NCBI RefSeq assembly: GCF_003231495.1
Contig: NZ_PQWO01000007.1
Location: 210,001 to 242,000, forward strand
Direction: 5' to 3'
DNA: 32,000 nucleotides
From: Acaryochloris thomasi RCC1774
Lineage (GTDB): Bacteria > Cyanobacteriota > Cyanobacteriia > Thermosynechococcales > Thermosynechococcaceae
The position numbers were made by a program, and so were the translations under genes. Positions 4,070-20,013 of this stretch are shown in pieces. Below the pieces are notes generated by a model. The model did not search any database, was not told where the DNA came from, and saw only the letters and a list, made by a program, of their open reading frames with translations. Position 1 is the first letter of the stretch, and each line of letters opens with the position of its first letter.

Positions 4070-4143
4070 TCGGGATGGCAGGATTTGAACCTACGACATC
4101 CTGCTCCCAAAGCAGGCGCGCTACCAAGCTGCGCTACATCCCG
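4070..4143 (-). tRNA. trnP: tRNA-Pro (anticodon UGG)
   Basis: The reverse complement reads CGGGATGTAGCGCAGCTTGGTAGCGCGCCTGCTTTGGGAGCAGGATGTCGTAGGTTCAAATCCTGCCATCCCGA. The acceptor stem is CGGGATG/CATCCCG, the anticodon loop is TT-TGG-GA on stem CCTGC/GCAGG, and the T-arm is GGTTCAAATCC. CCA is not encoded. Confidence 0.92.
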
Positions 4144-4318: not shown

Positions 4319-4843
4319 CTAGGAAGTTTTTCCGTATTGAAAATTCGTGAGACTGAAGATCGCATCTTTTACCTTTGGGCTTCCTTCGCCGTATAAATCG
4401 ACCCAATCATAAAAGGTGAGTTCCGGTTCAAGATGGGCTTGAGGATTTTGAGCACCCTCCAGCATGATGGTGGCAATAGCCTCATAGGCTTCTTGCCAAG
4501 CATCCATCGTTGCTGGCGTCCAGTCAGAACCAAGATAGGCTGCAAAGGTCTCAAAGAGAGCTTGACCAACCAGGGGATAGTGTTCTTCTAAGGTCCCTAC
4601 TTCAAAGTGCCTGGCGCCTAGACTTTTGAGTGCAGGTTCGAGTACCTCAGGACTTCTTAGGTTCTCAATGATTGCCGCGAGGGAGAAAATGAGCTTTTTC
4701 CCTTGGGCCTGCTGGCTAATATTGGCAAACAGTGGTTTTATGCCAGGATTGTGGCGAAAGAGCGTTTCATAGAAGTGGTTGGAAAAAGCGATCGCTTGAG
4801 GCCTGATCTGTTCAAACGATCTTTCGAGAAGCTCGATGTTCAT
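4319..4843 (-). CDS. single-domain globin (globin-coupled-sensor-related / bacterial globin family)
   Basis: 'MNIELLERSFEQIRPQAIAFSNHFYETLFRHNPGIKPLF' has a B10-like Tyr, and 'LKSLGARHFEVG' has a proximal-His-like LGxxH. The ORF track extends to 4894, but the globin fold begins at ATG 4843. A roughly 40-aa C-terminal tail lies outside the fold. Confidence 0.8.
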   Translation of the reverse strand: MNIELLERSFEQIRPQAIAFSNHFYETLFRHNPGIKPLFANISQQAQGKKLIFSLAAIIENLRSPEVLEPALKSLGARHFEVGTLEEHYPLVGQALFETFAAYLGSDWTPATMDAWQEAYEAIATIMLEGAQNPQAHLEPELTFYDWVDLYGEGSPKVKDAIFSLTNFQYGKTS

Positions 4844-5052
4844 AGGCGAATTACGGTAGGTTCGAAGCGAAAGAGGTACACAAGCAAGCAGCATCTAAGC
4901 TTTACTCTCTCTGACGCTGACCGAACTACGATATAGACAAAACGTGCTGGAGTAATGTCAATCTCGATACAAAGACCATCATGCTCCTTCAAGCGACTAT
5001 TCCTGATTAAATGACCTTTAATGGATAGTCTTGAGAATCCTTGAACATTTTG

Positions 5053-9163: not shown

Positions 9164-9201
9164 CCTGACACCTTCTGCTGGCGTTCCTGTGATTGTTGAG
9201 T

Positions 9202-10131
9202 ATGCCAACTATCCATGACTACTATCGCATCCTAGAGCTGAAGTACGGTTCTCCGATGGAAGAGGTGAACCAAGCCTATAAAGATTTGGTGTTTGTCTGG
9301 CACCCCGACCGCATCCCCACTGAGCGCGAGCGTCTTCATGAAAAAGCCGTTGTTAAGCTGCAGCAGCTCAATGAAGCCCGTGACTTTCTAAAGGCTTATT
9401 TGCAAAAGCGATCGCGACCAGCCGCCAGCCAGCGGACCGCACAGTCAACGGCTCGCTCGACCGCATCGGCTGCGAACCGCCGCACGCAGACAACGGCCCG
9501 AACTGCAGTCCGGACCACTACGGCCCGGACTGCCGACCGCACAGCACAGACATCAACTCGACAGAGAGCCACAGCTCAAGCTACTGCAACTCGTACCGGG
9601 GGCCGCACCACCACTCGTACCTCAACCCAGCGACCGACTCAGAGATCGAGACCTGCGGCCGCTGCTAGCTATGCGACGAAATCTCCTGTCCCAACGAATA
9701 ATCGTCCATCGCCGCCGCCAGCTTCACAGCCTGCTGTTAGGACACAGTCCACTCGTCATCCCCACCTGCCCGATCTCAGCGGTGTCGATCTGCAGGGATC
9801 TGATTTACAAGAAAAAGATTTGTCCGGTCGCAACCTCAGTCGCGCCAATTTGACCAAAGCCAACCTGAAAGATGCTTTCTTACACAAGATCGATCTTTCA
9901 GAGGCCAACTTGTCCCAGGCCAACTTAACGCGGGCAAACCTTCTGCAGGCTAATCTCAAAAACGCCAATTTGCGAGGCGCAAACCTGACCTGCGCTGACT
10001 TCAGCGGCTCTGACTTACGAGGTGCAGACTTAACTGGGGCCAGTATGGGCAGCAGCAGCCGAGTGATGGTGAAGCTGACGGGGGCCAACTTGTCAGGGGC
10101 CATTATGCCTAACGGGGCTGTACATCCCTAG
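9202..10131 (+). CDS. J-domain (DnaJ-like) protein with Thr/Ala/Arg-rich linker and C-terminal pentapeptide repeats
   Basis: The J-domain is 'DYYRILELKYGSPMEEVNQAYKDLVFVWHPDR' with an HPD motif. A low-complexity T/A/R/Q stretch of about 130 aa follows. After it come roughly 20 consecutive A(D/N)LxX pentapeptides ('ANLTKANLKDAFLHKIDLSEANLSQANLTRANLLQANLKNANLRGANLT'). The ORF track starts at TTG 9193, and the first ATG is 9202. Confidence 0.85.
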   Translation: MPTIHDYYRILELKYGSPMEEVNQAYKDLVFVWHPDRIPTERERLHEKAVVKLQQLNEARDFLKAYLQKRSRPAASQRTAQSTARSTASAANRRTQTTARTAVRTTTARTADRTAQTSTRQRATAQATATRTGGRTTTRTSTQRPTQRSRPAAAASYATKSPVPTNNRPSPPPASQPAVRTQSTRHPHLPDLSGVDLQGSDLQEKDLSGRNLSRANLTKANLKDAFLHKIDLSEANLSQANLTRANLLQANLKNANLRGANLTCADFSGSDLRGADLTGASMGSSSRVMVKLTGANLSGAIMPNGAVHP

Positions 10132-10164: not shown

Positions 10165-10800
10165 ATGTTGCGGAAACCTTCTATGCTTGCTCAACTCGTC
10201 CGTCCCCTCGTTCGCACACAAATCCAGCTTTTAACCCAGACGCAATCCTCCAGCGCCAAGCTTGTTAGCATGATTTCTCAGTGGCTTGGATACTTGGGCA
10301 TTCAAGCACACGTCAGTCACCTAAAAGTTGGTGACGGCAGGGTCAAGATTTCGTTAGATGTCGGTAAACCAGAGCAGTGCGAACCCCAAGAGTGGCAGCA
10401 GATTTTAGATAACATTGCTCAGACTCATGGTCGTCAAGATCACGAGTCTGAATTAACCTACGCTAATATGCCCAGCGATCAGCAACGCAAGGTAGCTCGA
10501 CTATTGACCTGCGTCATTCAGGCGGGGAATCCTGAGACAGTGCCTGACCAGGATATTCTTCAGCAGCGATTGTTGAAAATGGGCTTCGACGAGTCCCTTG
10601 TGCTAGAGATTAAGGCAGCCGTGAAGGTGCCAGGTGTTTTTGAACCTCTTTTGGAAGATTTAGAGCCAGATCTGGCGGCCTTTGTACTTTCGAAGGCGAT
10701 CGGCATTGCGCTGATGGATCAGGAGATTAGCCAGAAAGAAGATAGTGCACTGAAGGCTATCTATCATGTGCTGGAAAAGAAGGCCAGTGTTTCTGGTTAA
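10165..10800 (+). CDS. hypothetical protein (211 aa)
   Basis: An ORF 33 nt downstream of the J-domain gene on the same strand. I am not confident of any family. Its C-terminal about 70 aa has a diverged partial copy at 11043-11204. Confidence 0.6.
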   Translation: MLRKPSMLAQLVRPLVRTQIQLLTQTQSSSAKLVSMISQWLGYLGIQAHVSHLKVGDGRVKISLDVGKPEQCEPQEWQQILDNIAQTHGRQDHESELTYANMPSDQQRKVARLLTCVIQAGNPETVPDQDILQQRLLKMGFDESLVLEIKAAVKVPGVFEPLLEDLEPDLAAFVLSKAIGIALMDQEISQKEDSALKAIYHVLEKKASVSG

Positions 10801-10970
10801 ATGCTGACTTGAATGAAAAAGAAAAATCTTTCTCAGACAATCAATGAGTGAGCTTTGACCGCAAAGCATCGCTTTCAGAGTTGTGGTGGACTCAACTCTT
10901 GGATTCGTTTTCCCTACCTTTCCTCATATGTTTTGGACATGCGATACCTTCTGACCCACTGTTAAGATGA

Positions 10971-11204
10971 GATCGCATCCTCTCGGGTCAGACGAAACTC
11001 CTCTACGTATCCCCTGAACACGGCCTCAATTTTCTTGACCGGGTGAAAGCGAAGATTGATTTTGATGAGACCTTTGTTCTAGAGATTAAGGCAGTCGTGA
11101 AGGCCTCGGATTTTTTTGACTTTTCTTTAAAGGCTTTCGAACCAGATAAGGCATATTTGTATGCTGTCTTCAAACTTATCTCAGACAGGCCAATAAAAGA
11201 ATAA
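10971..11204 (+). pseudogene. mosaic gene remnant: internal recQ fragment fused in frame to a copy of the C-terminal part of ORF 10165..10800
   Basis: An open frame with no ATG reads DRILSGQTKLLYVSPEHGLNFLDRVKAK|IDFDETFVLEIKAVVKASDFFDFSLKAFEPDKAYLYAVFKLISDRPIKE*. The first half matches RecQ residues 'DRILSGTVKLLYVAPERLLNEGFLNFLDQVKAK' (nt 15691-15792), with about 75-80% nt identity by hand alignment. The second half matches 'KMGFDESLVLEIKAAVKVPGVFEPLLEDLEPDLAAFVLSKAIG' of ORF 10165. Confidence 0.6.
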
Positions 11205-11667
11205 CGACTCGTACGAATGTTAAAGAAATATTATACTTAGCGACAATATAAAGTAACTCCGTGACGCTTAGAAACCTATCTCTTTCAATGCCAACTAGTC
11301 GCTCAATGGTTTCTTGATCAAGACTCTCTACTCGTCTGAGAGGACTCTAAAAACAAGATATACTTTACTTATACGTTATTTATACATTCTCTCTATCTCA
11401 AAAGCTTTATGCTGTAGATGTATAGCTAGTTATTCTTTCTCTGCAGTTTTTTGTTGATCTTTATTTAGGAAGATTGCGGAGAGAAAGTAAGAAGAATCAA
11501 AAATCTATAGTTATGAATTTTTCTGTTGAAATTTTAGACTTAATCTCAAATTTTTTGGTGTACTACTGTACAACGTTCCTCTCTGTAAATGCTGTGATGC
11601 ACTCATGGATGTTGGATAGCAGCGTGCAAATATCTAACTGAGACCGCATCGTTGATGGAACAAAGAT

Positions 11668-13122
11668 ATGCCAGGAGGAATCTGTAACAACTTCATTAAT
11701 CTTGCGCTCACGCTGAATGGGCAAGCCCCCCAATGGGATCTGACGCTAGTATGGCTGCATACTCTATCTGAAGCCTGTATCGCTTCGGCATATTTCTCGA
11801 TTTTATTGGCGCTCATCTATTTTGTTCACCAGCGGAAAGACCTGCATTCCTGGATCTTTCCGCTATCTGGGGCCTTCGCTTTCTTCGGTGGCTTGACCCA
11901 TATCATGGAAGCCTATGCACTATGGTGGTATCCAAACCATTGGGTATCAGGCGTCATTAAATTCCTGACCGCCGTTATTTCATTAGTGATGGCAGCTGCG
12001 ATGATTCCTATCATCCCCCAGGCATTGACTCTTTCGAGTCGTGCAGAATTGGAAGTGGCTAAGGCAGAGTTAGAAGATCGTGTTCTCGAGCGAACGCAGG
12101 CGCTGCAGATTAGTGAGGAGCGCCTTCAACTGGCCCTTGACGGCTCTGGTGATGGGGGCTGGGACTGGAATATTTCTACAGGGGCTTTGTTTCTTAGTAC
12201 CCGATGGCAGGAAATGTTGGGCTACGGCGCCAATGAACTATCTGGAGAAGTGAGTGCTTGGGAGAGCTTAATTCATCCAGAAGATAAGTCAAGAGTCATG
12301 AAAGTACTAGAGCATCATCTTCAGGACAGTCGCGTGTCCTATGCTTTTGACTATCGCGTAAAAATGAAGTCAGGAGAATGGAAGTGGATAGGGAATTATG
12401 GCCGAGTTGTGGCCCGAGATGCGCAAGGTGCAGCGCTTCGTATGGCCGGAACTCATAAAGACATTAGCAACCGCAAACACTATGAGCAGAAGCTTTCAGA
12501 CTCGCTGGACGAAAAAAATATCATGCTGCAGGAGATTCACCATCGGGTAAAAAATAATTTGCAGGTGATTTGCAGCTTACTTAGTTTACAAACTCAAAGT
12601 AATACCGATCCGAAGATAATAAAGATTATGCAAGAAAGTCAGGATCGGGTTAGATCGATGGCCTTAGTCCATGAAAATCTATACTTGTCTAGAGAATTTT
12701 CAAACATTGATCTTGAAAGCTATGTGAATGACTTGACGAAGAATTTATTGCGTTCTTATCGTTCTAAAATAAGCCTGACAAAGATTGACGTTTCTATCTC
12801 AGACCTGCGTCTTGACATCGATAGTGCGGTTCTCTGTGGATTGATCATAAATGAGCTGGTGTCTAATGCTCTGAAATATGCTTTTCACCAGCGTCAAAAT
12901 GGAGAGATTTGCATCAAAATGGCCGAAAGAAACAGACAGGATATAATGTTGACGGTTACTGATAACGGTATCGGTTTACCCTCTGATATCAATATTGAGA
13001 AAACCGAGACAGTCGGCCTCCAAATGGTCAAGGCGTTGACGCAACAAATGTCAGGAACTCTCAGTATTAGCCGATGCCCAGGGACTTCGTTCTGTATTAC
13101 TTTTCCTCAAGTTTTTTCGTGA
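11668..13122 (+). CDS. sensor histidine kinase (ETR1-like 3-TM N-terminal domain, PAS, HisKA_2, HATPase_c)
   Basis: The N-terminal membrane module aligns to the plant ethylene-receptor binding domain (see findings). It has a coiled-coil linker, then a PAS domain 'LQLALDGSGDGGWDWNI...IHPED'. The H-box is 'EIHHRVKNNLQVICSLLSLQ' (HisKA_2 type). The N-box is 'NELVSNALKYAF' and the G-box is 'VTDNGIGLP'. Confidence 0.9.
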   Translation: MPGGICNNFINLALTLNGQAPQWDLTLVWLHTLSEACIASAYFSILLALIYFVHQRKDLHSWIFPLSGAFAFFGGLTHIMEAYALWWYPNHWVSGVIKFLTAVISLVMAAAMIPIIPQALTLSSRAELEVAKAELEDRVLERTQALQISEERLQLALDGSGDGGWDWNISTGALFLSTRWQEMLGYGANELSGEVSAWESLIHPEDKSRVMKVLEHHLQDSRVSYAFDYRVKMKSGEWKWIGNYGRVVARDAQGAALRMAGTHKDISNRKHYEQKLSDSLDEKNIMLQEIHHRVKNNLQVICSLLSLQTQSNTDPKIIKIMQESQDRVRSMALVHENLYLSREFSNIDLESYVNDLTKNLLRSYRSKISLTKIDVSISDLRLDIDSAVLCGLIINELVSNALKYAFHQRQNGEICIKMAERNRQDIMLTVTDNGIGLPSDINIEKTETVGLQMVKALTQQMSGTLSISRCPGTSFCITFPQVFS

Positions 13123-13143: not shown

Positions 13144-15288
13144 ATGATTGAATCTGAAATAATATCTGCTTCTATCGCCACACCTGCAAGGATCTTGATT
13201 GTTGAAGATGAAGGTCTCGTGGCCCTAGATATAAAACAGCGCCTACTTGACTTAGGCTATCAAATTGCCGGGATAGCTGAAACCGGAAAAGCTGCGATCA
13301 GGCAAGCTTTAGACTCCGAGCCTGATTTAGTTTTGATGGATATTCGACTCAAGGGAGAAATGGATGGAATTGAAGCGTCAACCTCTATTACCGCTCAACT
13401 TGATGTTCCCATCATCTTTCTCACAGGGTTTGCCGATCAGCAAACCCTTGATCAGGCTAAAGAAACGTTTCCCTTTGGCTATATCCTTAAGCCCTTCGAT
13501 ACGGTTGATCTATTCACGGGTATTGAGATTTGCCTTAAACGGCATCAGTTAGAAAAAGCTGTAAAGCATCAAAAAAATTGGCTAGATATTGTCCTTGAAA
13601 GCATTGGAGATGCTGTTGTAGCTACTGATAATAATGGCGCTGTGACTTATATGAATCGAGTTGCTGAGTCGATTACCGACTGGCAAAGAATAGATGCGTT
13701 GGGTCGAGATGCCAATGATGTTATGCCTTTGATGCTAGGTCATACAAAAGATGCCATAGAAAACCCTCTTAAGCAGGTTTTGAGGGAGGGGCAAGGGGTT
13801 GTGCTACCGGAAAATACTTTTCTCATTACTAAAAATAAGAAAGAGGTTCCAATTGAAGATAGTGCTGTTCCTATATTAGATGCAGACAATCAGTCCCATG
13901 GTGCTGTGATTGTCTTTCGAGATATCACGAAGCGGCTGCAGACGGATCAAGAACTCTTTCATCACGCTTACTATGACGCATTGACAAACTTGCCAAATCG
14001 CTCACTATTCATGGATCGCCTTCAACATCTGGTTGATCTCAACCAACGGTATCCGAACTGTAGCTTCGCTGTGCTGTTTGTTGATTTAGATCGATTTAAG
14101 TTGATAAATGATAGCTTAGGTCACCCTATTGGTGATCAGCTATTGATCCTCACGGCTCAACGGCTGCAAAAATGTCTGCGACCGACAGATACTGTTGCTC
14201 GATTTGGTGGGGACGAGTTTGCTGTCTTATTAGAACAGATTGTAGATCTTGAGAGTGTTCGCCTACTTGCAGAGCGTATTAATCAGGAACTTGGGGAGAC
14301 CTTTCATCTCGAAAATTATGATCTTTTTAATTCTGCCAGTATTGGCATTGTCCAGTGGCATCCTCGATATAAACAGGCCGAAGAACTGATTCGTGATGCC
14401 GACACCGCCATGTACCAAGCTAAGGCTAATGGTAAGGGATGTTATGCTGTTTTTGATGCTGCGATGCATACTCTGGTTAGAGGGCAGCTCACGCTAGAAA
14501 ATGAGCTTCGGTGGGCTATTCCTAATAACCAATTAACCCTTGAATACCAGCCAATTATTTCATTGGCTGATCAGGAGATTATCGGTTTTGAAGCTCTTGT
14601 TCGCTGGCAAAACCCGCAGCGAGGACAGATTTCGCCAGGGGTGTTTATCCCTATCGCAGAAGAAACAGGACTCATTGTTCATTTGGACTGGTGGGTTCTT
14701 CGCCAGGCTTGTCAGCAAATGAAAATTTGGCAAGATCAGTTACCGCCTGGGAAAAAATTAGAAATTAGTGTTAACCTTTCAAGTCACCATTTCTCACTCC
14801 CGAATGTAGTCGAACGAATTGAGAAGATTCTAAATGACACAGGAATGTCTGCTGCTAGCTTGAAGTTAGAAATTACTGAAAGAATACTTATTAAAAATCC
14901 TGACTCAGTTGCCCAGATTTTGTTGAATTTAAAGCGCTTGGGTATTCGTATTCATATGGATGATTTTGGTACAGGCTATTCGTCTCTAAGCTATTTGCAT
15001 AAATACGATATTGATACTATTAAAATTGATCGGTCCTTTATCCAAAACCTGGACTGCAGTGCTGAAAGCTTGGAGATTGTGCGCACGATTGTGCTGCTGG
15101 CTCATGCCTTAAAAATGGATGCGATTGCAGAAGGTGTTGAAACGGCTGAGCAACTTGCAATGGTCAAAAAACTGGGCTGTGAATATGTGCAGGGGTACTA
15201 TTTCTCTCAATCGATGACCTGTGAGCAGGTGATGACCTTGGTTGCTCAGAAGCAGTTCAAGCTTGATCCTGTGTCTCCGCAGGATTGA
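13144..15288 (+). CDS. response regulator receiver-PAS-GGDEF-EAL protein (c-di-GMP synthesis/hydrolysis)
   Basis: The REC domain is 'ILIVEDE...DLVLMDIRL...ILKP', followed by a PAS domain. The GGDEF domain has an intact 'RFGGDEFAV' and an I-site-like 'RPTD' 5 residues upstream. The EAL domain has EALVRW, NLS, EITER, DDFGTGYSSLSYL, KIDRSF, EGVET and QGYYFS. It starts 21 nt after the kinase stop. Confidence 0.92.
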   Translation: MIESEIISASIATPARILIVEDEGLVALDIKQRLLDLGYQIAGIAETGKAAIRQALDSEPDLVLMDIRLKGEMDGIEASTSITAQLDVPIIFLTGFADQQTLDQAKETFPFGYILKPFDTVDLFTGIEICLKRHQLEKAVKHQKNWLDIVLESIGDAVVATDNNGAVTYMNRVAESITDWQRIDALGRDANDVMPLMLGHTKDAIENPLKQVLREGQGVVLPENTFLITKNKKEVPIEDSAVPILDADNQSHGAVIVFRDITKRLQTDQELFHHAYYDALTNLPNRSLFMDRLQHLVDLNQRYPNCSFAVLFVDLDRFKLINDSLGHPIGDQLLILTAQRLQKCLRPTDTVARFGGDEFAVLLEQIVDLESVRLLAERINQELGETFHLENYDLFNSASIGIVQWHPRYKQAEELIRDADTAMYQAKANGKGCYAVFDAAMHTLVRGQLTLENELRWAIPNNQLTLEYQPIISLADQEIIGFEALVRWQNPQRGQISPGVFIPIAEETGLIVHLDWWVLRQACQQMKIWQDQLPPGKKLEISVNLSSHHFSLPNVVERIEKILNDTGMSAASLKLEITERILIKNPDSVAQILLNLKRLGIRIHMDDFGTGYSSLSYLHKYDIDTIKIDRSFIQNLDCSAESLEIVRTIVLLAHALKMDAIAEGVETAEQLAMVKKLGCEYVQGYYFSQSMTCEQVMTLVAQKQFKLDPVSPQD

Positions 15289-15369: not shown

Positions 15370-17595
15370 ATGCCTGCTCTTTCCATTCCCGGGTTTGAAT
15401 CCTTAGAGGCTGCTCTCAAACACTTTTTTGGTTACGATACTTTCCGGCCCGGGCAGCAGGATGTGATGGCGGCGGCCCTGCAGAATCAAGATCTGCTGGT
15501 GATCATGCCCACGGGAGGTGGAAAATCCCTGTGCTTTCAGCTTCCGGCCTTGCTGAAGTCGGGGCTAACGATTGTGGTGTCTCCTTTGATTGCGCTGATG
15601 CAGGATCAGGTGACGGCGCTGGAAGCCAATGATATTGCGGCAACGTTTCTCAACAGCAGTTTGGGGGCTGTGGAAGCTCGGGAAAGATGCGATCGCATCC
15701 TCTCTGGCACCGTCAAACTTCTCTACGTCGCCCCCGAACGCCTGCTCAACGAAGGATTTCTCAACTTTCTCGATCAGGTGAAAGCCAAGGTTGGCTTGGC
15801 GGGCATTGCCGTCGATGAAGCCCACTGCGTTTCAGAATGGGGCCATGACTTCCGCCCTGAATATCGCCGCCTTGCCGAAATCCGGCAGCGCTATCCTGAC
15901 GTTCCTGTGACCGCCCTGACCGCCACTGCCACTGAGCGCGTTCGGGGAGATATTTTGCATCAGCTCCGACTTCAAGATCCCCACGTTCATGTCTCTAGCT
16001 TTAATCGCCCCAATCTTTACTACGAAGTGCGGCCTAAAGAGCGAAATTCATACAACTCCCTTTATCAAGAGATTCGCCAACAAGATGGAGCCTCAGGCAT
16101 TATCTACTGCCTCAGTCGGCGCGAAGTCAATGAACTCACCGAACGTCTGCAGGATGACGGCATTAGCGCCCTGCCCTATCACGCGGGCCTCAAGGATGCC
16201 GATCGCAGCCAAAACCAAGACCGCTTTATTCGAGACCACGTTCAGATCATGGTTGCCACCGTTGCCTTCGGCATGGGTATTAATAAGCCCGATGTTCGGT
16301 TCGTCATTCACTACAATCTGCCGCGCAACATTGAGAGCTACTACCAAGAAGCAGGACGTGCCGGACGGGACGGTGAATCCTCACGCTGTCTGCTTTACTT
16401 CAGCCTCAAAGATATTCACACTCTCGACTGGTTGATTGACCAAAAGGTCGATGCCAACGGGCAACCGCTCGAAAACGAACAGCGGGTGGCGCGGCAGCAA
16501 ATGCGTCAGATGATTGACTATGCCGAGAGTACAGAATGTCGGCGCACCATCCAGCTTGGCTACTTCGGCGAAACCTTTGCTGGCAACTGTGGCGAGTGCG
16601 ACAACTGCCGTCACCCTAAACCCGTCGAAGACTGGACCGTGGAGGCGCAGAAGTTCCTCTCCTGCGTGGCCCGCTGTAAAGAGCGATTTGGCATGAACCA
16701 CATTATTGATGTACTGCGCGGCTCTAAAAGTCAGAAGGTGCTGAGTCGGGGGCATAATCGGCTTTCGACCTACGGTATTGGAAATGATAAGACGGCGGAT
16801 CAGTGGCGACGGTTGGGGCGATCGCTGTTGCATCAAGGTCTGGTTGCTGAAACCACTGACGGTTATCCAGTGCTGAAGCTGAATAACCAAAGCTGGGCGG
16901 TTTTGAAGAAAGAGCGTGTTGTGCAGGTTGCGGTGCCCCGAACACCGGAAAAAGATCCGACTCAGGTGGATCTGAAGCGTTCAGAGGTGGAGGCTTTGTT
17001 CATGCGGTTGCGATCGCTTCGCAAGCGGTTAGCGGATGAGCAGTCGGTTCCCCCCTACGTCGTTTTCGGCGATTCCAGCCTTAAGTTTATGGCTCAACAG
17101 CAGCCTCAGACTTTAGCTGATTTTGGACAAATTTCGGGGGTCGGCCAGCGCAAACTGGAGCAGTACGGCGAGATTTTCACTGAAGAGATTCGAGCCTATC
17201 GCCAAGAGCAGGGGCTACCCGTGGTGGCGGCAGAGATCATAGAACAAGAAGACTTGCCCAAACGCAGAGAGCGTCCGAAATCTACGCAGCTATCGAACAC
17301 CTTAGCAATGACGTTAGCGCTGCATCAGCGAGGGGAGACACCTGAACAGATTGCTCAGCAACGGGGTGTGAAAGTGACGACGGTCTTTAATCATCTGGGA
17401 GAACTGTTGGAGAAGGGGCAGCCAGTGGTGCTAGAGCAACTCGTGCCAGTTGATCGCCAAGCTTCGATTATGCAGGCGATAGAGCAAGTTGGCCCTGACT
17501 ATTTAGGACCGATTCGTGAGCATTTAGGGGAGCAGTATGAGTACAGCGAAATCAAATTAGTTCGAGCTTGGTGGCAGCAAAATCAAAAAGCGTAG
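15370..17595 (+). CDS. recQ: ATP-dependent DNA helicase RecQ
   Basis: It opens with 'FGYDTFRPGQ'. Walker A is 'MPTGGGKSLCFQLPA' and the DEAH box is 'VDEAHCVSEWGHDFRPEY'. Further motifs are 'TATAT', 'VATVAFGMGINKPDVRFVIHY' and 'YYQEAGRAGRDG'. It has the Zn Cys cluster 'C..(x)..CGECDNC', an HRDC-like 'SVPPYVVFGDSSLKFMA' and an extra C-terminal HTH-like tail of about 110 aa. Confidence 0.95.
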   Translation: MPALSIPGFESLEAALKHFFGYDTFRPGQQDVMAAALQNQDLLVIMPTGGGKSLCFQLPALLKSGLTIVVSPLIALMQDQVTALEANDIAATFLNSSLGAVEARERCDRILSGTVKLLYVAPERLLNEGFLNFLDQVKAKVGLAGIAVDEAHCVSEWGHDFRPEYRRLAEIRQRYPDVPVTALTATATERVRGDILHQLRLQDPHVHVSSFNRPNLYYEVRPKERNSYNSLYQEIRQQDGASGIIYCLSRREVNELTERLQDDGISALPYHAGLKDADRSQNQDRFIRDHVQIMVATVAFGMGINKPDVRFVIHYNLPRNIESYYQEAGRAGRDGESSRCLLYFSLKDIHTLDWLIDQKVDANGQPLENEQRVARQQMRQMIDYAESTECRRTIQLGYFGETFAGNCGECDNCRHPKPVEDWTVEAQKFLSCVARCKERFGMNHIIDVLRGSKSQKVLSRGHNRLSTYGIGNDKTADQWRRLGRSLLHQGLVAETTDGYPVLKLNNQSWAVLKKERVVQVAVPRTPEKDPTQVDLKRSEVEALFMRLRSLRKRLADEQSVPPYVVFGDSSLKFMAQQQPQTLADFGQISGVGQRKLEQYGEIFTEEIRAYRQEQGLPVVAAEIIEQEDLPKRRERPKSTQLSNTLAMTLALHQRGETPEQIAQQRGVKVTTVFNHLGELLEKGQPVVLEQLVPVDRQASIMQAIEQVGPDYLGPIREHLGEQYEYSEIKLVRAWWQQNQKA

Positions 17596-17715
17596 AACTC
17601 AGATTCGCTATAAATCAGGCTGTATTCTGGCTCCAACGGTAGATTTTAGCCCTGTGGGCAACAAAGGTTTATTATTCAAGTCTGAGTGGTGGTTGATGCT
17701 GGGGGGCGATCAAAA

Positions 17716-19431
17716 ATGTCAATGATGACGCCAAATTTGTGGCTGTATCGATCTTTATCGCGGTTTAGGTGGCTGTGGGGCTATAAGAGCAAAATCATGG
17801 TTGTTGCCTTTGTCGGTATCCATGTGCCTCTGTTGACCTTGCTGGTTAGTTTTTTGGTGTCATCGACTTTCCCGATGGGGCTTACCGTCCGAGTGCTCAT
17901 AATTGGGCTTTGTGCGACTCTGGCCGGGACCATCTGTACGCTTTATGCGCTCCGTGATTTATTAGCCCCGGTGGTTCTAACCGCTAAGAGTCTGCGTGAT
18001 TATGCCAATCTCAGGGCGTTGCCCAATCTGCCCACGGAGTTCTCTGATGAAGTGGGACTGCTCATGAGCAATACCTCTCGAACGATCCAACAGTTGGATC
18101 AAGTGATTCACTACATGGCAAGCTATGACGATCTCACTGGCTTGCCCAATCAAACTCTCTTGTCTAGCCGCCTGCAGCAAAGGCTCTCTCATGCGCAGCA
18201 GAAGCATCAATTCTTTGCTGTCTCATCTTTTGCCATCGGGAATCTAGACGCGGTTTATAGTGCGTTTGGCAAAGAGAGCAGTGAGTCCTTTGTTAGGGCC
18301 GTTGCTCAGCGCCTTAGTCTGCAGTTCCATGAGTCCGTTCTTTTTTCTTACTTGGGCGGTGGCTTATTCACCGCTGTTCAGACCCATTCTGAAGAGTCAA
18401 CAAATCGAGCTGTCCTGGCCCAAACGATTCTCGAAGCGCTGCAGGAACCTTTCATGCTTGATGAGCAAGAAATCTATGCGGTCGTGAATATAGGCACGAG
18501 TGTCTACCCCTATGACAGTACTGAGATCAATCAACTGCTGCAGCATGCCAATGCTGCCCTGAATCAGGCCAAGCAATTGGGGCGAAATACCCATCAGTTT
18601 TTTGCCTCTGAAATGAATGTCAAACTGCAGGAGCGCCTCAGTCTTGAAAATGAACTGCGCTGCGCCCTCGCTAGAAATGAACTGCAGCTTCACTATCAAC
18701 CTCGGGTCGAGACTCAGAGCGGTCGCATTGTGGCGGTTGAGGCGCTCCTGCGCTGGCATAGTCCAACTCGGGGCTGGGTTTCTCCTGGAACCTTCATCCC
18801 CATTGCTGAAGACAGCGGCCTCATTCTGTCGCTTGGAACCTGGATTCTCAAAACGGCCTGTCGCCAGAATCGACTGTGGCAGGAGGCGGGCTTACCTCCC
18901 ATTCGCATGGCGGTTAATTTATCGGTTCATCAGCTGCGGCAAGATAACTTTGGGGCATTGGTGGGGGATATTTTGGCGGAAACTCAACTAGATGCCGCGT
19001 CGCTGGAGTTAGAGGTAACCGAAAGTCTGATGATGGACAATATGCAACAGTCCATCGATACTTTGCAGGCGCTGGGTGATCGGGGCATTACTTTGGCGCT
19101 AGATGATTTCGGTACAGGGTACTCCTCTCTTAGCTATCTGCGACGATTCCCGATTGATACGCTCAAGATTGATCAGTCCTTCGTTCAGAATGTTTTGTCT
19201 GATGTTGGGGATGCTGCGATTACCAAAACGATCATTGCCCTTGCCCAAAATCTACAGCTCAACATCACTGCAGAGGGTGTCGAAACGCAGGAACAGTTCG
19301 AGTTCATCAAGTCGCAGGGATGTGATGAGGTTCAGGGCTTTTACTTTAGCCGTCCGATCTTGGCCGATCATTTGACTGACCTACTGCAGAATGGTGCCAA
19401 TTTATCTAAGCAAAGTGCGCCGATGTCTTAA
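17716..19431 (+). CDS. membrane-anchored degenerate-GGDEF / EAL c-di-GMP phosphodiesterase
   Basis: It has two N-terminal TM helices. The GGDEF-fold region has the signature replaced by 'GGGLF' (nt 18355-18369). The EAL domain is complete: EALLRW, NLS, EVTES, DDFGTGYSSLSYL, KIDQSF, EGVET, QGFYFS. The ORF track starts at GTG 17686, and the first ATG is 17716. Confidence 0.88.
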   Translation: MSMMTPNLWLYRSLSRFRWLWGYKSKIMVVAFVGIHVPLLTLLVSFLVSSTFPMGLTVRVLIIGLCATLAGTICTLYALRDLLAPVVLTAKSLRDYANLRALPNLPTEFSDEVGLLMSNTSRTIQQLDQVIHYMASYDDLTGLPNQTLLSSRLQQRLSHAQQKHQFFAVSSFAIGNLDAVYSAFGKESSESFVRAVAQRLSLQFHESVLFSYLGGGLFTAVQTHSEESTNRAVLAQTILEALQEPFMLDEQEIYAVVNIGTSVYPYDSTEINQLLQHANAALNQAKQLGRNTHQFFASEMNVKLQERLSLENELRCALARNELQLHYQPRVETQSGRIVAVEALLRWHSPTRGWVSPGTFIPIAEDSGLILSLGTWILKTACRQNRLWQEAGLPPIRMAVNLSVHQLRQDNFGALVGDILAETQLDAASLELEVTESLMMDNMQQSIDTLQALGDRGITLALDDFGTGYSSLSYLRRFPIDTLKIDQSFVQNVLSDVGDAAITKTIIALAQNLQLNITAEGVETQEQFEFIKSQGCDEVQGFYFSRPILADHLTDLLQNGANLSKQSAPMS

Positions 19432-19503: not shown

Positions 19504-20013
19504 CTAGGGTTTTTCTTCTGTTAACAGTAATGTCTCAACATAGTCTTTCGATTCTCGAAGCCCCCAGCCGGTTTGTTCTCGAACGCGCTTGATGGCTACA
19601 ATCTTCTGACCATTTAGGACTAACTGTCGCACTTCTGCGTCTCTGTCTACCGAGAGATTTTGGGCTAGAGGCATTGGAGACGTTGATGTTTGGCTAACAG
19701 TGTCTAACTCGCTCACTGGATGCGTCAGGTCCTCTGCATATTGCTTCGCTTGCTTGAGGCTCCAGCCTGTCTGCTCGCGGATCAGTTTGATTGCCAGAAT
19801 TTTGTGACCTTTGATCAGCAGATCTTGAGCTTCTGCATTGAGAGAGGGCCAGGATGGATGTGACGGATTGCCAGCGTTAGGGGACAGGGGCGGCTGACAT
19901 TTTTGTTGAACGTGAGGCGCATTCGCGGCCCTTTGGCCTTGTTTCGGCTGGAGGATCCACCAGATAAAGATCATGAATAAGATGGCGGCACCCACAATCC
20001 AAACGACACTCAT
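19504..20013 (-). CDS. membrane-anchored protein with two ribosomal-protein-L7/L12-C-terminal-like repeats
   Basis: The N-terminal TM helix is 'VVWIVGAAILFMIFIWWIL'. The two internal repeats are 'LLIKGHKILAIKLIREQTGWSLKQAKQYAEDL' and 'LVLNGQKIVAIKRVREQTGWGLRESKDYVETL'. They resemble the L7/L12 CTD segment '[24 protein letters not shown]'. Confidence 0.65.
   Translation of the reverse strand: MSVVWIVGAAILFMIFIWWILQPKQGQRAANAPHVQQKCQPPLSPNAGNPSHPSWPSLNAEAQDLLIKGHKILAIKLIREQTGWSLKQAKQYAEDLTHPVSELDTVSQTSTSPMPLAQNLSVDRDAEVRQLVLNGQKIVAIKRVREQTGWGLRESKDYVETLLLTEEKP

Follow-up and report, generated by a model that had tools for sequence, protein, structure and literature searches.

In the Arabidopsis receptors ETR1 and ERS1 the ethylene-binding domain is a module of three transmembrane (TM) helices in which Cys65 and His69 coordinate Cu(I) (PMC11819568). 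Here we examine a sensor histidine kinase from the cyanobacterium Acaryochloris thomasi RCC1774, encoded in a 32,000-nucleotide stretch of contig NZ_PQWO01000007.1 (positions 210,001 to 242,000 of the forward strand). This whole stretch is called the window, and all coordinates are positions within it. The kinase carries a domain of the ETR1 family in which the residues of the copper and ethylene pocket have been extensively substituted. Judged from these substitutions, we think it fairly probable that the domain is a derivative blind to copper and ethylene, kept as the membrane input or transmission module of a two-component pair that acts on cyclic di-GMP (c-di-GMP).

Mutation of either Cys65 or Asp25 abolishes ethylene binding in Arabidopsis ETR1 (AtETR1), and the equivalent Cys mutation does likewise in cyanobacterial SynEtr1 (PMC11819568). 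Ile35, Pro36 and Ile62 are also listed as essential for ethylene binding, and Ser98 and Pro110 are implicated in signal transmission (PMC6586836), with Lys91 acting as the polar-bridge partner of Asp25 (PMC10266040). ETR1 with the D25E change binds copper only minimally or residually in vitro and binds less ethylene, and in planta it confers insensitivity to ethylene (PMC10266040). The ETR1 mutants hit at these positions (etr1-1, which is C65Y, as well as C65S, D25A, D25E and D25Q) have lost copper and/or ethylene binding and are still folded and signalling-competent (PMC10266040, PMC11819568); loss-of-binding mutants are described as locked in the 'on' conformation (PMC10266040). In a survey of 1,221 such domains the Cys and His were 'highly conserved', and variants with Asn25 (3.67%) were discussed as physiologically meaningful, being argued to be functional low-affinity receptors (PMC10266040).

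By architecture, the nearest characterised system to the window kinase is AzoEtr1 of Azospirillum brasilense, which regulates biofilm-type behaviour and shares with it an ethylene-binding domain, a PAS domain, a histidine kinase and an adjoining response-regulator gene (PMC11819568). However, AzoEtr1 has all seven binding residues, binds ethylene and has a different partner regulator (PMC11819568), and where it carries D35, C75, H79 and K98 the window kinase carries E35, G74, H78 and K98. The window protein thus naturally resembles the engineered non-binding controls of that study, AzoEtr1 C75A and D35A. SynEtr1 (Slr1212/UirS/PixA) and GeiEtr1/2 are cyanobacterial histidine kinases with ethylene-binding domains that signal by phosphotransfer (PMC6682694). 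These proteins do bind ethylene and include cyanobacteriochrome or GAF modules among their domains, whereas the window kinase is without the copper ligand and combines one PAS domain with a HisKA_2 domain. Its canonical orthologues share with them the PHGHCYLW-type N-terminus and all of the binding residues. Compared with ETR1 and ERS1, the window kinase has no GAF domain and uses HisKA_2 instead of HisKA, and its predicted output is phosphotransfer to a c-di-GMP enzyme as opposed to signalling via CTR1 and EIN2.

Residues of the copper and ethylene pocket

The gene and the domain under discussion are the following.

11668..13122, + strand: sensor histidine kinase gene, 484 amino acids (aa), from the open reading frame listing and Pfam
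11746..12033, + strand: ETR1_N, the ethylene-binding-domain fold, residues 27-122, three predicted TM helices (Pfam PF25487)

The match to PF25487 spans profile positions 2-97 of 97, with a score of 92.6 bits where the cut-off is 27 (E 1.8e-26). By sequence, the N-terminal module is truly homologous to ethylene-binding domains of the ETR1 type. An earlier reading of this DNA from its letters and open reading frames (the sequence-only reading) had already identified it as such. It had also placed Gly at the Cys65 position, Glu at the Asp25 position and a retained His at the His69 position, and had proposed a pairwise alignment as a check. An ETR1 N-terminal sequence served as the query for a search that brought up fragments of plant ethylene receptors, as much as 91% identical to it, but no Arabidopsis record. 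The pairwise reference was P0275, a protein named 'ethylene receptor' that is 86% identical to this ETR1 query and has identical Cys65/His69 numbering. BLASTP aligned kinase residues 1-142 to P0275 at 33% identity over 132 aa (E 2e-14), setting GAFAFFGGLTH opposite GAFIVLCGATH, which contains Cys65 and His69, and LSEACIASAYFSI opposite ISDFFIALTYFSI, which holds Asp25. A second plant protein gave the same register, with identities to plant receptors of 33-34% over ~130 aa. G74 does therefore fall opposite Cys65, H78 opposite His69 and E35 opposite Asp25. The description of the alignment as running 'almost without gaps' was roughly right, although gaps do occur, confined to the N-terminal tail and two loops.

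With residues 1-142 as the query, an exhaustive HMMER search gave 6042 relatives at E ≤ 1e-3. Residues were counted in the best 150 of these plus one other relative, 151 in total. In MAFFT alignments with the 151 relatives and with 18 orthologues the segment around G74 is ungapped and flanked by the invariant F70, G75 and H78. The positions of interest are listed below, where the clade means the window kinase and the one close homologue described in the next section.

11887..11889, + strand: G74 (GGT), ETR1 Cys65, the Cu(I) thiolate ligand; relatives have Cys in 149, Ser in 1, Gly in 1
11770..11772, + strand: E35 (GAA), ETR1 Asp25; relatives have Asp in 150, Asn in 1
11803..11805, + strand: L46 (TTA), ETR1 Pro36; relatives have Pro in 140, Ser in 10, Val in 1
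11878..11880, + strand: A71 (GCT), ETR1 Ile62, on the TM2 face of His78; Ile in 149 of 151 relatives
11866..11868, + strand: S67 (TCT), ETR1 Phe58, on the TM2 face of His78; Phe in 151 of 151 relatives
11989..11991, + strand: M108 (ATG), ETR1 Thr101, in TM3, a Met gained in the clade; Thr in 147 of 151 relatives
11776..11778, + strand: C37 (TGT), ETR1 Phe27, a Cys gained in the clade; Cys in 2 of 151 relatives
11713..11736, + strand: residues 16-23, LNGQAPQW, a degenerate remnant of the periplasmic PHGHCYLW; His17, His19 and Cys20 lost
11899..11901, + strand: H78 (CAT), ETR1 His69, kept; His in 151 of 151 relatives
11959..11961, + strand: K98 (AAA), ETR1 Lys91, kept; Lys in 151 of 151 relatives

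Relative to ETR1 and ERS1 the window kinase therefore carries C65G, D25E, P36L, I62A, F58S and T101M. The sequence-only reading was correct on C65G and D25E and missed the remaining four as well as the loss of PHGHCYLW. Its conclusion that the protein probably cannot bind Cu(I) or ethylene in the canonical way comes out strengthened, as four binding-required residues have changed and not one. The E35 position is Asp in all 17 orthologues that cover it, and at the PHGHCYLW positions Cys20 is found in 151/151 relatives, His17 in 149/151 and Pro16 in 143/151, where the window kinase has A, N and L, respectively. Over the 37 columns that are ≥93% conserved the window kinase deviates at 10; no single relative among the 151 deviates at more than 4.

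The window kinase belongs to the same fold family, and many other residues have been kept. In addition to His69 and Lys91, the equivalents of Tyr32 (Tyr42), Ile35 (Ile45), Gly66 (Gly75), Ser98 (Ser105) and Pro110 (Pro117) are all in place, with Tyr42 and Ile45 each matched in 151/151 relatives. Tyr32 reportedly belongs to the 'seven' binding residues of Wang et al. 2006. Of the residues expected of a functional ethylene receptor, the window kinase retains His69, Tyr32 and Ile35 and departs at Cys65, Asp25, Pro36 and Ile62. The joint loss of the thiolate, the optimal Asp and the invariant periplasmic His-x-His-Cys motif suggests that copper has been abandoned altogether.

Two periplasmic segments differ as well. 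Cyanobacterial ethylene-binding domains have a near-invariant periplasmic PHGHCYLW together with a WHPxYW loop between TM2 and TM3, and in the window clade these read LNGQA(P/L)QW and WYPNHW, the latter with its His and Tyr swapped (11923-11943). Disulfide dimerisation through the N-terminal Cys has been suggested for this domain (PMC6682694). The clade has its own Cys6 in the N-terminal tail (11683-11685), common to both members and Cys in 0/151 relatives, and it is possible that Cys6 may replace the lost Cys20 in an intermolecular disulfide.

The sequence-only reading had suggested that the protein may sense something else or may use C37 in helix 1. We also asked whether the kinase could still be an ethylene receptor, with Cu(I) held by His78 and Cys37, maybe across the dimer interface, or by His78 and Met108, and with ethylene bound perhaps at lower affinity and with faster kinetics, as proposed for Asp25Asn variants. 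C37 and M108 are indeed clade-specific gains conserved in both genomes, and in a wider sample of domains described below the M108 position is Thr in 280 and Met in 1. ETR1 Phe27, the equivalent of C37, tolerated Trp in a tryptophan scan; residues that face the dimer interface were reported to behave in this way, and the model from that work sets the copper sites at this interface (PMC6586836). There is also precedent for weakened sites, given that receptors with a natural Asn25 have been argued to function and that ETR1 D25E retains some ethylene binding (PMC10266040). However, this would have to survive four simultaneous changes at Asp25, Pro36, Ile62 and Cys65, when a substitution at Cys65 alone is enough to abolish binding in AtETR1 and SynEtr1 (PMC11819568). 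On an ideal helical wheel of TM1, E35, Y42 and L46 lie on one face and C37 sits 200° from E35, and the loss of the periplasmic His/Cys motif, whose Cys is universal among the relatives, points to copper having been given up. We consider a surviving receptor improbable.

The arrangement of the TM2 changes allows a different explanation. With H78 set at 0° on the helical wheel, S67 falls at 340°, A71 at 20° and G74 at 320°, all within 40° of the kept His, and each is a change to a smaller residue. It is possible, if doubtful in our estimate, that the pocket was re-tuned to a different ligand or cue that is reported to c-di-GMP signalling. Candidates would be another metal bound via His78, Glu35 and Met108 (or Cys37), or a larger small molecule, hydrophobic or polar, in the opened cavity, with the signal reaching the kinase by way of a Glu35-Lys98 bridge and helix 3. 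The shared helical face of the three TM2 changes fits this, as do the retained carboxylate, His and Lys, the kept Ser98 and Pro110 equivalents, and the joint gain of C37 and M108, which are rare or absent in relatives. Conversely, a S-xxx-A-xx-G stripe is a classic tight helix-packing signature that would close the pocket and not open it, and the sequence points to no ligand that could be named.

Distribution of the variant and selection on the gene

A full-length homologue search found one protein, MEO0373601.1 (P0152) from a cyanobacterial metagenome-assembled genome (GCA_039814705.1), that is 91% identical to the window kinase. Its locus (L018) is syntenic, running from the kinase to the response regulator, RecQ and then a GGDEF-EAL gene, and the protein has every derived residue (NGQALQW, E35, C37, L46, S67, A71, G74 and M108). 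The two proteins also agree in their loop indels, each having lost one residue between TM1 and TM2 and gained one between TM2 and TM3. A further 18 orthologues, 481-484 aa long except where truncated, share 60-66% identity with the window kinase and show the canonical residue at all of the derived positions that lie within them. The sequence-only reading had proposed a survey of the Gly, and the result is split, in that it is common to a second genome 9% diverged and the 18 more distant orthologues all have Cys. Apart from MEO0373601.1 itself, its protein cluster contains just two calls of the kinase gene in the window, and a metagenome scan added nothing to the derived clade, returning only two distant relatives (38-40% identity). 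The derived clade is known from two genomes. A short N-terminal query (146 aa) in a word-index search gave one relative and missed MEO0373601.1; it was the full-length and HMMER searches that found the relatives.

The second genome also settles whether the Gly could be an error. A single T-to-G misreading (TGT read as GGT) is refuted by it and retains next to no probability, since the same Gly, the accompanying substitutions and the two loop indels all recur in GCA_039814705.1, in a gene that differs by 8% in nucleotides. More generally, the derived residues are not sequencing errors, as all of them are found in a syntenic gene from an independent assembly.

To place the variant more widely we looked at about 287 other scorable domains, a non-random sample of cyanobacterial and plant proteins. 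The Cys65 position is Cys in 283/287. The four without Cys are WP_088429228.1 of Halomicronema hongdechloris C2206 with Gly, an uncultured Nostoc protein (P0236) with Tyr, which is the etr1-1 change, a metagenomic protein with Ser and a plant fragment with Ala. All four keep the rest of the pocket, and the natural single-site variants (WP_088429228.1, the Nostoc Cys to Tyr variant and Asp25Asn) also keep the N-terminal motif. These replacements may mark further ethylene-blind receptors or, for single records, may be errors. Many pocket changes combined were found only in the window clade among the ~287 domains, and the six pocket-related changes together with the loss of the N-terminal His/Cys motif likewise set this clade apart. 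In our literature search, the coverage of which was incomplete, no paper was found that describes natural clades without Cys65.

We then counted clade changes at columns ≥80% conserved, taking as such any residue that the two derived genes have in common and that none of the 18 canonical orthologues shows. Changes were found at 5/10 conserved columns in the N-terminal tail, 11/59 in the ethylene-binding domain and 19/226 in the cytoplasmic parts, so that the sensor module (16/69) is enriched over the cytoplasmic parts (19/226; Fisher p = 0.002). This differs from the ETR1 mutants, which are single laboratory or induced changes, in that ~11 changes in the domain and 5 in the N-terminus have been fixed naturally and kept by selection.

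The ratio of non-synonymous to synonymous substitution rates (dN/dS; Nei-Gojobori, window gene versus its L018 homologue) is 0.19 for the ethylene-binding domain (8 non-synonymous, 12 synonymous), 0.12 for the cytoplasmic part (29.5 and 55.5) and 0.44 for the N-terminal tail, codons 1-26 (8.3 and 4.7). Pairs of canonical orthologues give 0.14-0.33 for the domain, and the value for the window clade lies within this range. These counts are small and the result is supportive, suggesting that within the clade the domain is under purifying selection with no evidence of decay. A burst of change on the stem branch, followed by constraint, is what a re-tuned sensor would be expected to leave. However, purifying selection is equally expected of a membrane anchor and dimerisation module, and the variant is carried by two genomes only.

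The gene has two public calls, one of 484 aa (P0270) and one of 405 aa that starts at Met80 (P0271; 11905-13122). A Met80 start would remove TM1 and TM2 and with them G74 and H78, making the N-terminal region a decaying remnant in front of a kinase with one TM helix or none. The shorter call itself and the elevated dN/dS of the N-terminal tail are what speak for this, and we find it very unlikely. The dN/dS is below neutrality over codons 1-79 (0.36, p = 0.016) and also over codons 27-79 (0.26, p = 0.035). Neither genome has a stop or frameshift in the region, the Pfam match spans the whole domain, and the 484-aa form is the one annotated in the independent assembly. Given the selection on codons 1-79, and given that all full-length orthologues begin where the 484-aa form does, we favour the long form, though this evidence is supportive rather than decisive.

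Signalling architecture and neighbouring genes

The layout of the kinase, with domains from Pfam, is ETR1_N, a coiled-coil linker, PAS_3, HisKA_2 and HATPase_c. The cytoplasmic domains and the gene that follows are as listed.

12187..12456, + strand: PAS_3, residues 174-263, cytoplasmic (PF08447, E 5.8e-22)
12532..12759, + strand: HisKA_2 dimerisation and phospho-acceptor domain, residues 289-364, H-box EIHHRVKNN (PF07568)
12841..13110, + strand: HATPase_c catalytic domain, residues 392-481 (PF02518, E 2.1e-13)
13144..15288, + strand: REC-PAS-GGDEF-EAL response regulator, 714 aa (Pfam), starting 21 nucleotides (nt) past the kinase stop codon

The HisKA_2 match is complete (profile 1-76 of 76, E 2e-28), and EIHHRVKNN, NELVSNALKYA and DNGxGLP are unchanged throughout the orthologue alignment of 18 sequences. 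With HisKA_2, the H-box, HATPase_c and an adjoining receiver-domain gene, the window kinase is by its domains a HisKA_2-type kinase, and the motifs of the adjoining regulator are intact (RxxD, GGDEF at 355, EAL at 483, DDFGTG at 606 and EGVE at 663). This agrees with the earlier proposal of a HisKA_2 kinase that signals to a c-di-GMP enzyme. The two genes are probably co-transcribed. A kinase followed by a REC-PAS-GGDEF-EAL gene is also found at loci L001, L018, L021 and L023, and each of four canonical orthologues read at the DNA level is followed by this same gene (partial for some). The window regulator is 94% identical to its L018 counterpart and 65% to that of L001, and on this sequence evidence the two-gene cassette is orthologous across loci and its output half is intact.

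For the membrane part, TM1 and TM3 stand out clearly in the hydropathy profile and TM2 less strongly. An AlphaFold2 (AF2) model from the 18-sequence alignment gives helices at 25-55, 57-87 and 91-120 and then a long helix at 125-157, at low confidence. The predictions are thus of three N-terminal TM helices followed by a cytoplasmic linker. The model (predicted local distance difference test, pLDDT, 61.5; predicted template modelling score, pTM, 0.36) is too weak to judge the geometry of C37 or M108 relative to H78, and a sequence comparison with solved structures gave no match to the domain.

Our favoured explanation, loss of the copper and ethylene site with retention of the module, would run as follows. 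In a small cyanobacterial clade the pocket would have been rebuilt (C65G, F58S, I62A, P36L, D25E, T101M, with PHGHCYLW erased), and with it the canonical Cys/His(/Asp) Cu(I) site and high-affinity ethylene binding would have been lost. The fold would have been kept along with the equivalents of His69, Lys91, Ser98 and Pro110, leaving a membrane-embedded dimeric module that would still set the state of the kinase. The HisKA_2 kinase would autophosphorylate and, judging by the domains and gene order, pass the phosphate to the REC domain of the adjoining REC-PAS-GGDEF-EAL protein, which when phosphorylated would set c-di-GMP synthesis or breakdown. Since the transmission residues equivalent to Lys91, Ser98 and Pro110 are kept, the TM module probably does still set the signalling state. 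The input would no longer be ethylene, and the simplest options are the cytoplasmic PAS domain, with PAS_3 a candidate for the remaining sensory input, or a TM module held in one signalling state as in the Cys65 mutants of ETR1. As non-binding ETR1 mutants are folded and locked 'on', by analogy the membrane module may hold the kinase in one state, with regulation coming through the PAS domain.

Several points weigh against this explanation. We infer the loss of copper and ethylene binding from mutants of other receptors, and in these the loss is not always complete, with ETR1 C65S/H69A keeping residual copper binding in vitro and D25E some ethylene binding (PMC10266040). The gained C37 in helix 1 and M108 in helix 3 are potential soft ligands. 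Purifying selection and the buried E35, H78 and K98 fit a functional ligand site equally as well as a structural role, and the dN/dS of the domain rests on the few substitutions given above. The AF2 model, at its low pLDDT, gives no geometry that could decide the matter. The intact downstream pathway is also what would be expected if the sensor had been re-tuned.

Upstream of the kinase is an intergenic region of ~870 bp (10801-11667). Its last 60 nt before the kinase start are ~88% identical to L018, and over 224 nt the identity is 58% (ungapped). Promoter-like matches in this region are not above shuffled expectation, and Rfam, promoter and terminator scans around the kinase gene found nothing specific.

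Downstream of the regulator, RecQ (15370-17595) is followed by a 581-aa GGDEF-EAL protein without a receiver domain (17686-19431, + strand), and the order of kinase, regulator, RecQ and GGDEF-EAL is the same in L018. Upstream on the + strand, 9193-10131 encodes a DnaJ-domain protein with a long low-complexity linker rich in Thr, Ala, Arg and Gln and with C-terminal pentapeptide repeats; the 211-aa open reading frame (ORF) that follows it (10165-10800) has no Pfam match. A 169-aa ORF on the - strand (19504-20013) matches the ribosomal L7/L12 C-terminal profile at positions 10-36 of 67 only (E 6e-12) and is not near any ribosomal operon. A tRNA gene (4070-4143, - strand; Rfam, 68.7 bits) adjoins a 191-aa globin-domain protein (4319-4894, - strand), and elsewhere in the window are a pyruvate kinase, a 2-hydroxyacid dehydrogenase, a B12-binding radical-SAM protein and an HlyD/RND efflux pair.

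Implications for the ethylene-binding domain family

The field defines the ethylene-binding domain by its Cys/His copper site, and surveys count putative receptors by the presence of all seven residues. The window clade would be a natural counter-example, in which the fold, the transmission residues and the partner have been retained under selection and the copper and ethylene pocket appears to have been replaced wholesale. One practical consequence concerns annotation, as a match to Pfam ETR1_N alone does not make a protein an 'ethylene receptor'. If the module is merely ligand-blind, it would be an ordinary degenerate sensor domain and mainly of specialist interest. The clade offers a natural control for separating the ligand-binding from the signalling parts of the domain, and a test case for whether the ethylene-binding fold can accept other ligands. 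Should the pocket instead prove to be re-tuned, the domain would be the first of its ETR1-type transmembrane family with a specificity other than ethylene.

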